Assembly (NCBI GenBank): GCA_017654855.1
Contig: CM030337.1
Span: 3,472,001 to 3,536,000 of the forward strand
DNA: 64,000 bases
Direction of reading: 5' to 3'
DNA from: Podospora anserina
Taxonomy: Eukaryota
Positions 53,464-54,357 of the stretch are shown here, one piece after another. The notes under the pieces are model-generated. The model ran no database searches. It worked only from the letters and a program-made list of their open reading frames with translations, and had not been told where the DNA came from. Both the position numbers and the translations under genes were made by a program. Position 1 is the first letter of the stretch, and every line of letters begins with the position of its first letter.

Positions 53464-54357
53464 TCACAGCTTTGCTCCCCCGCTTACCTTCCTATGCAAT
53501 GAACACATCCCTATTTCTGACTCCCTCGCAAAATCTACCACCCTCATTAGATCATCCTTTCCTGTGCTTCCAACTCTTTTCACCAGTTCACTCAGCTCTT
53601 CCTGATCCCCCCTCGACACAGCCCTCACAGCCCTCTCCACCCACTGAATTCTCTCCCCCGTCCACCCCCTCCTCTTCAGGCCCACAGCGTTAACCCCCAC
53701 CGTCCTCCCTCTATACCCCTTGACCATACTATACGGCAAAACATCCCTGCTCACCACCGTCGCCCCCCCAACATAGGCGTACTCCCCAACCCTCACAAAC
53801 TGAACGGTCCCTCCCATGCCCGCAAAAATCGCTCCCCTCCCCACCGTTACATGCCCAGCCAGGAGGACCCCGTTCACGAGGATGACCTCATCCCCCAAGA
53901 CACAGTCGTGAGCAACGTGGCTGTTGGCCATGAGTAGACACCCATTTCCTATCACTGTTCCTTTGGCCGAAAAGCCGACGTTGCAGGTTACGCCCTCGCG
54001 GATGGTGCACGAGTTTCCGATGGTGAGCTTGCCGGTGTTGGGAGGTTGGGATTTGTCGGCTAGGGCTTGGGAGGGGCCGCCTAGGACGGAGAAGGGGTGG
54101 ATGGTGCAGTCGGTGCCGAGGGTGGTGTTGGAGGAGATGGAAACGTGGGAGAGGAGGGTGGTACGGGCGGAGATGGTGACGTTGGGGCCGATGAGGCAGA
54201 AGGCTCCGACGGTGGCGGTTGGGTGGATGAGGGGGAGAGAGGAGGGGTGGATGAGGGAGGAGGGGTGGATTCGAGGGGTGGGATGATGTGGTTGTGTTGA
54301 TGGGAGGGGTGGGAGCGTGATTGCTGGTTGATTGGGAGGGATGTTTGAGTCGTCCAT
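53464..54357 (-). CDS. lpxA: LpxA-like acyl-[ACP]--UDP-N-acetylglucosamine O-acyltransferase (left-handed beta-helix), intronless
   Basis: IHP hexapeptide repeats, IREGVT, LLMANSHVAHDC, LAGHV, QFVRVG, DVLPY, GVN.VGLKRRG. Confidence 0.85.
   Translation of the reverse strand: MDDSNIPPNQPAITLPPLPSTQPHHPTPRIHPSSLIHPSSLPLIHPTATVGAFCLIGPNVTISARTTLLSHVSISSNTTLGTDCTIHPFSVLGGPSQALADKSQPPNTGKLTIGNSCTIREGVTCNVGFSAKGTVIGNGCLLMANSHVAHDCVLGDEVILVNGVLLAGHVTVGRGAIFAGMGGTVQFVRVGEYAYVGGATVVSRDVLPYSMVKGYRGRTVGVNAVGLKRRGWTGERIQWVERAVRAVSRGDQEELSELVKRVGSTGKDDLMRVVDFARESEIGMCSLHRKVSGGAKL

Follow-up and report, generated by a model that had tools for sequence, protein, structure and literature searches.

In textbooks, lipid A synthesis in Gram-negative bacteria starts with LpxA, which is also a target for antibiotics. 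Beyond the bacteria, lpx genes have been a subject of discussion in plants, whose LpxA is targeted to mitochondria. For the E. coli enzyme, the legend of Fig. 3 in PMC6286764 has H122 and Q73 reading the 3-OH and G143 the carbonyl of the acyl group. The same source describes the H125-D126 catalytic dyad and the oxyanion role of Gly143, and assigns the 3-O and 6-OH of GlcN to H125 and H144, the alpha-phosphate to Q161, the uracil to N198 and R205 and a contact with the GlcN ring oxygen to K76 (PMC6286764). An H160A mutant is described as far less active, and it is put forward there, as a proposal only, that H160, and likewise R258, may help ACP binding (PMC6408518). Plants are described as holding several lpx genes, at least six in number (PMC3087551). 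Acylation of a sugar within fungal peroxisomes is described for Mac1 and Mac2 of Ustilago maydis, PTS1-bearing enzymes that O-acylate a sugar with acyl groups from beta-oxidation in the synthesis of mannosylerythritol lipids (PMC7896148). Literature searches on fungal or peroxisomal LpxA and on lpx genes in other eukaryotes, with supplementary tables of HGT surveys outside their scope, yielded no publication dealing with either kind of LpxA. We know of no relationship between Mac1/Mac2 and LpxA, and the two are likened here by description, as a functional analogy only.

A gene of the LpxA type from Podospora anserina was analysed here within a contiguous 64-kb stretch of DNA (the window) that contains no N. 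An earlier note, made from the letters of this stretch, had described an intronless LpxA homolog of about 297 aa, and the open reading frame (ORF) is present on the minus strand exactly as described (Table 1); the motifs listed there (SHVAHDC, LAGHV, QFVRVG, VGG and GVNAVGLKRRG) were all found in the translation. The absence of introns was borne out by the unbroken pairing of the ORF with solved bacterial LpxAs across residues 22-284 and by transcript-type contigs that cross the ORF without a joint. Residues 1-29 comprise 9 Pro, 2 D/E and 1 K/R, a composition unlike a mitochondrial presequence, as had been noted before, and this extension differs in length and sequence between the members of the clade described below.

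Table 1. Features of the LpxA-type gene, its product and the adjoining upstream region (positions refer to the window, residue numbers to the 297-aa protein).
Feature	Position	Strand	Basis or remark
LpxA-type acyltransferase CDS, whole, without introns	53464..54357	minus	ORF list and translation; 297 aa, ATG to TGA, stop at 53464-53466
N-terminal extension, residues 1-29	54271..54357	minus	Pro-rich, slightly acidic, weakly conserved, probably disordered
Left-handed beta-helix of hexapeptide repeats, residues ~30-222; trimer interface and active-site cleft	53692..54270	minus	Pfam Hexapep, E = 2.5e-21; regular short strands in the model
Loop Q97-A98-L99-A100-D101, equivalent to E. coli Q73-D74-L75-K76-Y77	54055..54069	minus	Residue map; Q73 kept, D74 and K76 lost
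S146-H147-V148-A149-H150-D151-C152; H147 equivalent to E. coli H122, H150/D151 to the H125/D126 dyad	53902..53922	minus	Sequence; invariant in alignments A1 and A2
V185, at the position of E. coli H160	53803..53805	minus	Residue map; proposed ACP/phosphopantetheine-side position, occupied by V, L or A among the derived fungal members
C-terminal helical domain, LpxA-specific, Pfam Acetyltransf_11 at residues 205-285; holds N223, R229 and R230 (uracil contacts N198, R204 and R205 in E. coli)	53503..53745	minus	PF13720, 57 bits against a cut-off of 24.5
C-terminal tail, flexible, residues 287-297, ending A-K-L; candidate PTS1	53467..53499 (AKL codons 53467-53475)	minus	Translation
Intergenic region, AT-richer (GC 0.435), common to the divergent 480-aa orphan gene; presumed promoter and 5' UTR	54358..55019		Composition

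The whole protein was scored against the two curated NCBIfam LpxA equivalog profiles and exceeded both curated cut-offs, with 251.2 bits against 226 for NF003657 (E = 9e-75) and 236.7 bits against 231.05 for TIGR01852 (E = 2.5e-70), the profile that the earlier note had named as a check. The AF2 model (pLDDT 92.5, pTM 0.87) gave only LpxA structures at the listed ranks 1-30 of a Foldseek comparison with the PDB, LpxD appearing first at rank 31, and the top match was 4eqy_C with a TM of 0.91 and an rmsd of 1.9 A. By equivalog scores and fold the protein is therefore a genuine member of the LpxA family, as had been claimed. It shares with the bacterial enzymes (E. coli 1LXA/2QIA and Burkholderia thailandensis 4EQY) the fold, at TM values of 0.84-0.91 and an rmsd of about 2 A, and the modelled trimer; identity to solved LpxAs is about 34-36%. 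It differs from them in being encoded in the nucleus without lpxD-fabZ-lpxB neighbours and in carrying the Pro-rich 29-aa N-terminal extension and the C-terminal -AKL. Arabidopsis LpxA (PDB 3T57), likewise a nuclear-encoded eukaryotic homolog of similar fold (rank 23, TM 0.69-0.71), is farther from the Podospora protein than the bacterial enzymes are (114 bits versus 156 for 4eqy).

Within the model, helices of the C-terminal domain were placed at residues 224-229, 234-249, 252-261 and 264-279, and the mean pLDDT was 52, 65 and 80 for the first three 10-residue blocks. A homotrimer with active sites between the subunits was modelled with three copies, the interface spanning residues 33-215 and including positions 97, 147 and 185. 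The ipSAE was 0.86, versus 0.00 for the best of three controls, although this pass may reflect memory of solved LpxA trimers and is to be read as likeness, not as binding. Contact agreement between runs was at least 93% and partner pLDDT at least 89; on eukaryotic proteins, the ipSAE mark was reached by 17/29 solved as one-chain pairs and by 0/30 solved as single chains.

The fungal relatives of the protein form a small and patchy clade (several Sordariales, Zarea, Patellaria and Mycena) with a support of 100/99; it is eukaryotic and mostly fungal, and a broad, vertically inherited fungal family of the kind against which the earlier note had weighed its claim was not found. Among nine other clade proteins, NF003657 was passed by all and TIGR01852 by eight, the Zarea protein falling below the latter cut-off at 218.8 bits. 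At least 13 divergent lineages have preserved an uninterrupted reading frame, and catalytic residues are invariant across ascomycetes and a basidiomycete. Orthologues are located on fungal contigs of 0.2-4.5 Mb; Mycena has two copies on a single contig of 4.5 Mb, and the model of Podospora fimiseda (P0008) is shortened, with one segment missing.

The genomic setting was analysed with respect to composition, transcripts and neighbouring genes. In three of four runs, tentatively taken to be RNA although no RNA run was listed among those with the stretch, contigs with GT..AG splice joints of a neighbouring gene also cover the ORF, unspliced; since the contigs are strandless, part of this cover could stem from transcription running through from the convergent methyltransferase gene. 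In the four runs, only a small number of contigs, with low word depth, lie over the ORF. Two contigs (X16 rec 7, 54154-54438, and X15 rec 2, 54380-54590) continue past the ATG into the upstream region with no joint, 54610-54877 is uncovered throughout the four runs, and X20 shows no ORF cover beyond 53444. The third-position GC content (GC3) of the ORF is 0.69, compared to 0.64-0.75 in its neighbours, and its RSCU correlates with theirs at 0.75, the neighbours among themselves at 0.56-0.66. The 4-kb stretch around the ORF (52.6-56.6 kb) was found in 20 sequencing runs from eight studies. The gene is authentically fungal and not a contamination, because its neighbours on both sides are spliced fungal genes with matching codon usage and the stretch recurs in these runs; the claim of a gene residing in a fungal genome thus stood.

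HET, PAT1, She9 and Ktr-type genes occur in the window, and among 20 long ORFs scanned there were a P450, a methyltransferase, MFS transporters and an amine oxidase, with no PKS or NRPS and no biosynthetic gene cluster. Mac1/Mac2, in contrast, are encoded in such a cluster. A functional linkage with the divergent 480-aa neighbour was considered and rejected: it has only three homologs (Podospora pseudoanserina, Cercophora samala and Triangularia setosa), and in C. samala its homolog lies on a 427-kb contig and the LpxA homolog on another of 12 kb. No conserved functional linkage of neighbouring genes was seen.

The statement that the window holds no further lpx gene was upheld for LpxB, LpxC, LpxD and LpxK: in tblastn searches with these E. 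coli proteins and MsbA, the present ORF was the sole match in the 64 kb, so that co-occurrence with lpxC, lpxD, lpxB or lpxK is absent at this scale. FabZ was also used as a query, and a weak FabZ match at 301-480 (E = 0.013) was dismissed as spurious, being antisense to a PdxS/SNZ-like ORF.

Mapping of the E. coli residues onto the protein showed H122 as H147, H125 as H150, D126 as D151, H144 as H169, Q161 as Q186, N198 as N223 and R204/R205 as R229/R230, all retained, with G168 as the equivalent of the oxyanion Gly143. Replacements were found in the QDLKY loop, which reads QALAD (D74A, K76A, Y77D), and at H160 (V185) and R258 (Ile). The alignment map thus agrees with what had been stated by eye on the kept and the altered positions. 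G168, H150 and D151 are invariant in both alignments, as are the equivalents of H122, H144 and R204, and those of Q73, Q161 and N198 are nearly so. Within the UDP-GlcNAc contact set (N198, R205, Q161, H144, K76 and the L75 backbone in E. coli), N223, R230, Q186 and H169 are retained and the equivalents of K76 and D74 are both Ala. As far as can be judged from the sequence, the catalytic dyad, the oxyanion Gly, the 3-OH readers and the uracil and phosphate readers are intact.

The loss of D74 and K76 is by itself no proof of a new acceptor, because the rhizobial LpxA of Sinorhizobium (P0104) likewise lacks both. The changes at K76 and H160 are limited to a derived subgroup of the fungal clade; basal members retain the QDxKY loop and H160 (P0027, P0145, P0313 and P0314 have His at this position) and already carry the signal-like C-terminal tail, so that the change at H160 is not tied to retargeting. 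Only four signature positions distinguish the clade as a whole, none of them at a known contact residue. Since, in addition, the K76 and H160 changes belong to the derived subgroup, repurposing for another substrate appears possible, but the clade in its entirety gives no indication of it.

The protein ends with -AKL directly before the TGA stop codon, which matches the published PTS1 consensus (S/A/C)-(K/R/H)-(L/A) (PMC3781343). A terminal [K/R][L/I] was found in 12/13 non-redundant lineages of the clade compared to 0/362 other LpxA homologs, and in another sequence set in 17/18 clade sequences compared to 0/270 others. Position -2 is basic in 12 and position -1 is L or I in all 13 of the lineages, where entropy amounts to 0.9-1.0 bit at -1 and -2 versus 2.6-3.1 bits at -3 to -12. 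The exception is the protein of Patellaria atrata with the end -SRLDL; two further clade members end with -CKI and -VKL, and the tripeptides PKL, NKL, TKL, NRL, ARI and VKL of the clade lie outside the strict published consensus. The last block of the AF2 model has a mean pLDDT of 49, and the tail is probably flexible, compatible with an exposed signal. Because the terminal dipeptide is selectively kept while the ten preceding residues drift, the C-terminus of the clade is read as a PTS1 pattern that makes peroxisomes a fairly probable candidate location. The cytosolic location assumed in the earlier note appears unlikely on the same grounds. A PTS2-like motif near the N-terminus (R29-I30...H37) was checked by eye and rejected for its wrong spacing. 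The fatty-acid-responsive element CCTCGG occurs 41 times in the window, compared to 36.7 expected, which is not significant; one site (54590-54595) is located upstream of the gene.

With respect to origin, bacterial LpxAs of about 40-45% identity come closest outside the fungi. A sister group of Myxococcota type was suggested by score and a quick tree (SH-aLRT 85), but in the careful tree, where support was 35/83 and the long branch P0156 intervenes at this position, no bacterial sister group of the fungal clade was supported. A scan of metagenomes with the clade alignment gave, among the best 80 of 598 stretches, only bacterial-looking matches of at most 44% identity and no fungal locus or synteny. 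The corresponding scan of genome contigs gave, again among the best 80 of 598 stretches, at most 46% identity in many phyla (Alphaproteobacteria, Acidobacteriota, Nitrospirota, Desulfobacterota and others) and no donor lineage; a protein atlas search returned bacterial LpxA clusters only. Another eukaryotic clade, which contains oomycetes and has a support of 100/99 of its own, consists of LpxA equivalogs as well (303 bits for P0284 of Aphanomyces); its members differ in that about 45-65 residues are added at the N-terminus and a [K/R][L/I] end is lacking. The unconstrained tree keeps this clade apart from the fungal one. An independent origin of the two is nevertheless unsupported, as the tree constrained to join them had a likelihood higher by 12.37 and an AU p of 0.663. 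The old bacterial acquisition put forward in the earlier note is one candidate origin; the lineage may instead descend from an ancient eukaryotic LpxA common with oomycetes, and not from a recent bacterial transfer.

The PTS1 tail suggests an undescribed peroxisomal sugar-acylating step and not lipid A synthesis. The chances are put at about even that the protein is an intact homotrimeric LpxA-type O-acyltransferase which would be imported by its PTS1 and act with an (R)-3-hydroxyacyl-CoA donor on a UDP-sugar acceptor. Import into peroxisomes by Pex5 is predicted to proceed via the C-terminal -AKL; (R)-3-hydroxyacyl-CoA would be taken over as the D-3-hydroxyacyl-CoA intermediate of the fungal beta-oxidation enzyme Fox2; and His150/Asp151 as general base would move the acyl group onto a sugar hydroxyl of UDP-GlcNAc or a near UDP-sugar, giving an O-(3-hydroxyacyl) amino-sugar nucleotide or a glycolipid precursor. 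Considered separately, a UDP-GlcNAc-like acceptor could go either way, and a donor of the acyl-CoA instead of the acyl-ACP type, proposed tentatively because we know of no acyl carrier protein in peroxisomes, is rated somewhat below that. The donor idea is also supported by the V, L or A found in the derived subgroup at the H160 position, which has been proposed to lie on the ACP side. Fox2 is described as working via D-3-hydroxyacyl-CoA (PMC10629195), and Mac1/Mac2 offer a precedent for acylating a sugar within peroxisomes. Several points count against the proposed peroxisomal reaction. These are the thermodynamically unfavourable LpxA reaction in the absence of LpxC, the preference of E. coli LpxA for acyl-ACP, which bears on the donor, and the fact that we know neither of an entry of UDP-GlcNAc into peroxisomes nor of a follow-up enzyme for the fungal product.

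If the PTS1-like tail were unused, the enzyme would work in the cytosol and have been repurposed to acylate a different sugar nucleotide or a small molecule, as the earlier note had proposed. This is regarded as unlikely, in spite of the altered D74/K76 loop and H160 position in the window protein and its closest relatives, the missing N-terminal targeting sequence and the lack of another lpx gene in the window: the near-universal terminal dipeptide of the clade, absent from all other homologs compared, can hardly be accounted for unless a C-terminal signal is under selection, and the Sinorhizobium enzyme and the few signature positions away from known contacts likewise speak against it. A canonical acyl-ACP:UDP-GlcNAc acyltransferase in a plant-like lipid A-type pathway, with its partner lpx genes at other places of the genome, is considered distinctly less likely. 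Its N-terminus is not presequence-like, and the clade has a PTS1-type end, in contrast to plant LpxA and to the long-extended proteins of the oomycete-containing clade; moreover, LpxB, LpxC, LpxD and LpxK are absent from the window, H160 is lost and the taxonomic spread is very patchy. These points weaken a reading for which the passed equivalog cut-offs, the complete set of catalytic, 3-OH and UDP readers, the number of lpx genes in plants and the union with the oomycete-containing clade that was not rejected speak. Very unlikely is a neutral relic, that is a transferred gene persisting without function, to which the patchy distribution, the sparse and shallow contigs and the shortened P. fimiseda model could be attributed, given the intact frames, invariant catalytic residues, conserved terminal dipeptide, host-like codon usage and two Mycena copies. 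Bacterial contamination or an assembly artefact, to which the bacterial nearest non-fungal relatives and the lack of introns might point, is effectively refuted by the contiguous window, the flanking genes with verified spliced introns, the matching codon usage, the recurrence of the stretch across studies, the sizes of the orthologous fungal contigs and a best bacterial identity of just about 45%.

What appears to be new here is the PTS1-like terminus of a fungal LpxA clade, found in an organism that is an established model of peroxisome genetics. In its widest form, the proposal reads that some fungi run an unrecognised peroxisomal lipid branch, in which a PTS1-bearing LpxA, perhaps of an ancient eukaryotic lineage, would esterify (R)-3-hydroxyacyl-CoA to UDP-GlcNAc or a related amino sugar and give lipid-X-like lipids; this wide form is held to be rather doubtful. 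If it were true, lipid-X-like acylated amino-sugar lipids would occur in a eukaryote without an outer membrane, and one more would join the increasing number of non-classical roles ascribed to fungal peroxisomes. If the clade is truly peroxisomal, this would be a new cellular setting for LpxA, probably with a new donor as well (acyl-CoA instead of acyl-ACP), and would imply an unrecognised acylated amino-sugar product in fungi. The clade would then represent a natural experiment in the retargeting of a bacterial-type enzyme, in which a two-residue C-terminal signal was gained on a pre-existing tail.

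The frame runs without interruption from ATG to TGA exactly where the earlier note had placed it, and according to the ORF list and the translation its start at 54357 is the first in-frame ATG past the upstream stop. The motif SHVAHDC was located precisely at 53902-53922, the remaining motifs quoted earlier were also present in the translation, and the N-terminus is proline-rich as had been described (9 prolines, 2 D/E and 1 K/R among residues 1-29). Assignment to the LpxA family, originally made by eye, was supported by both NCBIfam LpxA equivalog models, whose cut-offs were exceeded (NF003657, 251.2 bits vs. 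226; TIGR01852, 236.7 bits vs. 231.05), whereas the runner-up family LpxD stayed far below its threshold (85.6 bits vs. 242.5). Pfam matches comprised Hexapep and the LpxA-specific C-terminal Acetyltransf_11, and in a PDB sequence search solved LpxAs ranked best (4eqy first, E = 1.3e-44), with continuous alignment across residues 22-284. The AlphaFold2 model generated from a 92-row alignment (mean pLDDT 92.5, pTM 0.87) had low pLDDT only in the N-terminal 20-odd residues and the final ten. In a Foldseek search with this model every listed rank from 1 to 30 was an LpxA structure (best TM 0.91, rmsd 1.9 Å), and LpxD structures started at rank 31. The three-copy model scored 0.86 vs. 0.00 for the best of three controls (contact agreement at least 93%, pLDDT at least 89); since LpxA trimers have already been solved, this pass may merely reflect those known structures and shows likeness only.

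Neighbours, codon usage and recurrence across sequencing runs identify the ORF as a fungal gene. Neighbours coded in the window include HET, PAT1, She9/Mdm33, a Ktr-type mannosyltransferase, a C1-domain kinase, P450, MFS transporters and others. GC3 of the ORF (0.69) lies inside the range of its neighbours (0.64-0.75), its codon usage correlates with that of the pooled neighbours at 0.75 (neighbours among themselves, 0.56-0.66), and the 4-kb stretch around it occurs in 20 sequencing runs from 8 studies. For the adjacent methyltransferase gene, one contig carried both GT..AG joints (52646>52705 and 53239>53296) in 4/4 runs presumed to be RNA, which identifies the contigs as transcript assemblies and verifies the introns at 52647-52704 and 53240-53295. 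The LpxA ORF was covered by joint-free contigs in three of the four runs (X15, 53296-54230; X16, 53296-53701, 53717-54170 and 54154-54438; X18, 53793-54156), and these contigs, like the unbroken alignment to solved LpxAs, agree with the intronless frame noticed earlier. Because the contigs are strandless and the methyltransferase gene is convergent, sense transcription of the LpxA ORF is only likely. Methyltransferase contigs extend to 53408-53701, the X15 contig merging onward to 54230, so the two genes may overlap at their 3' ends as antisense transcripts. Using tblastn with E. coli queries, no LpxB, LpxC, LpxD or LpxK was detected in the 64-kb window, as had been claimed for further lpx genes.

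Features of the window
Feature	Position	Strand	Remark
5'-open ORF	1-417	+	By eye, resembles the C-terminal portion of PdxS/SNZ (pyridoxal-phosphate synthase subunit)
Poly-N ORF	2296-3018	-	21 Asn in an unbroken run
Acyl-CoA dehydrogenase gene	15214-16806	+	All three domains present
HET (heterokaryon incompatibility) domain gene	29806-31695	+	
Flavin amine oxidase gene	41196-42827	-	
Methyltransferase gene	52600-53360	+	Methyltransf_23 type; convergent with LpxA gene
LpxA ORF	53464..54357	-	297 codons
480-aa gene	55020-56462	+	Divergent from LpxA gene; without Pfam domain
471-aa ORF	61860-63275	+	Weak sub-threshold Pfam match to delta-endotoxin N-terminal domain (20.7 bits, cut-off 21.3, E = 3.7e-4)

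The 480-aa gene, covered by joint-free transcript-type contigs, is a lineage-restricted orphan: a search of 5.8 billion clustered proteins gave only three homologs, in Podospora pseudoanserina (99%), Cercophora samala (78%) and Triangularia setosa (54%). HET domain genes are characteristic of filamentous ascomycetes, Podospora included. The acyl-CoA dehydrogenase and amine oxidase genes belong to lipid and amine catabolism and show no obvious connection with the LpxA gene, and the window start falls inside the PdxS/SNZ-like gene.

Of the best 120 matches to the LpxA-type protein among the same 5.8 billion clustered proteins, the highest-ranking are fungal: Cercophora samala (72% identity), Cladorrhinum sp. 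PSN332 (62%), Podospora australis (56%), Cladorrhinum sp. PSN259 (53%), Mycena rebaudengoi (51%), Zarea fungicola (42%) and P. fimiseda (a shortened gene model). Below these ranked bacterial LpxAs, at no more than 45% identity. Cluster look-ups added the Podospora bellae-mahoneyi orthologue (97% identity in homolog alignment A3), Patellaria atrata and one more copy from Mycena, and a clade profile search brought two more members and set the members (357-421 bits) apart from all else (at most 319). A broadly distributed, vertically inherited fungal clade is not what was found: the LpxA-type fungal family is small and patchy. The near-identical M. rebaudengoi copies (P0006 and P0122) lie on one 4.5-Mb contig, one ending in -NKL and the other in canonical -SKL, and the proximity of their accession numbers hints at a tandem duplication.

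The quick tree of 120 rows, built without P0008 (shortened model) and P0103 (203-aa fragment), placed the nine rows with a PTS1-type end in one clade (SH-aLRT 99). For a careful analysis with IQ-TREE, 92 of about 290 proteins were selected (14 from the clade, 9 bearing long extensions at the N-terminus, 68 of bacterial type, and E. coli). It recovered the 14 fungal-type rows as monophyletic (100/99) and the extension-bearing proteins as a second clade (100/99) including Aphanomyces oomycetes. This second LpxA equivalog clade (P0284, P0229, P0153-P0155, P0176, P0230, P0252, P0257) carries N-terminal extensions of 45-65 residues and includes A. cochlioides and A. euteiches; a literature search found no publication on oomycete lpx genes. 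The neighbours of the fungal clade, a long branch (70/66) followed by a Myxococcota-type group (35/83), leave its sister group without firm placement. When the fungal and oomycete-containing clades were forced together, the AU test did not reject the topology (p = 0.663), and the log-likelihood of the constrained tree exceeded that of the free tree by 12.37; a single old eukaryotic LpxA lineage thus appears as possible as the separate bacterial transfer favoured earlier. Within the fungal clade, Zarea (Hypocreales), Patellaria and Mycena group together (99/96), separate from Sordariales (99/95). This departure from the species tree suggests either gene transfer between fungi or an ancient paralogy followed by loss.

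Residues were mapped by alignment to the annotated E. coli K-12 LpxA record. The protein retains H125/D126 (as H150/D151), G143, H122, Q73, H144, Q161, N198, R204 and R205, which bears out the retention read by eye. The Fig. 3 legend of PMC6286764 gives H125/D126 as the catalytic dyad, G143 as oxyanion hole and H122 and Q73 as the residues that read the acyl 3-hydroxyl; contacts to GlcN 6-OH, alpha-phosphate and uracil described there are likewise among the kept residues. The differences are D74A, K76A, Y77D, H160V and R258I, of which the altered QDLKY loop and the loss of H160 had been noticed before. K76 contacts the GlcN ring O (PMC6286764), H160A has much lower activity, and H160, R258 and adjoining residues are proposed as aids in ACP binding (PMC6408518). 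These changes call for caution: in the same alignment a Sinorhizobium LpxA likewise lacks D74 and K76, and the most basal clade members retain H160 and a QDxKY loop. Only four positions are specific to the whole clade, none of them at known contacts (0/4). The alignment thus shows an intact LpxA-type catalytic centre, predicted to be still able to read a 3-hydroxyacyl chain and the UDP moiety.

The most informative feature, absent from the earlier note, is the conserved PTS1-type C-terminus. The protein ends in -AKL, conforming to the consensus (S/A/C)-(K/R/H)-(L/A) printed in PMC3781343. A loose PTS1 pattern was matched by 9 of 121 first-search proteins, all full-length and fungal-type and none bacterial-type, and by 3 of 149 additional representatives, all three clade members; terminal [K/R][L/I] occurred in 17/18 clade sequences vs. 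0/270 others. After thinning to 13 non-redundant lineages, position -2 was basic in 12/13 and position -1 was L or I in 13/13 (the exception, Patellaria, ends in -SRLDL), with column entropies of 0.9-1.0 bit at -1/-2 vs. 2.6-3.1 bits at -3 to -12; both features together were found in 0/362 other homologs. Several relatives have non-canonical ends (PKL, NKL, TKL, NRL, ARI, CKI, VKL). The last block of the modelled tail has pLDDT 49, as would be expected for an exposed signal. Since a tail of like length past the S-x-R-G-x-C motif is already present in many bacterial homologs, the change consists in the fixation of two terminal residues. These tail statistics show an end of PTS1 type that is selectively maintained, and the N-terminus is unlike a presequence.

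With such an end and no presequence, the protein would be imported into peroxisomes. There, the D-3-hydroxyacyl-CoA intermediate of Fox2 beta-oxidation (PMC10629195) could serve as (R)-3-hydroxyacyl thioester source, the natural LpxA donor being an R-3-hydroxyacyl thioester (PMC6408518). A precedent for peroxisomal sugar acylation is provided by Ustilago Mac1/Mac2, described in PMC7896148 as O-acylating sugars within fungal peroxisomes in connection with beta-oxidation. The simplest acceptor would be UDP-GlcNAc or a close relative. Weak points of this proposal are that we know of no route for UDP-GlcNAc entry into peroxisomes, that the LpxA reaction equilibrium is unfavourable and that E. coli LpxA prefers ACP.

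The existence of the homolog is on record, as some orthologues are titled 'putative acyl-UDP-N-acetylglucosamine O-acyltransferase' or 'trimeric LpxA-like protein' at NCBI. Literature searches turned up no publication on LpxA from fungi or peroxisomes, though supplementary tables of HGT surveys might list the gene; as far as found, its targeting signal and clade structure have not been described previously. The observation made in the earlier note is confirmed, while its interpretation as a bacterial acquisition repurposed in the cytosol is supported in part only: the acyltransferase assignment stands, bacterial transfer is one of two equally possible origins, and the C-terminus points to peroxisomes. 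The gene encodes a real fungal enzyme of the LpxA family, and a probably functional one.
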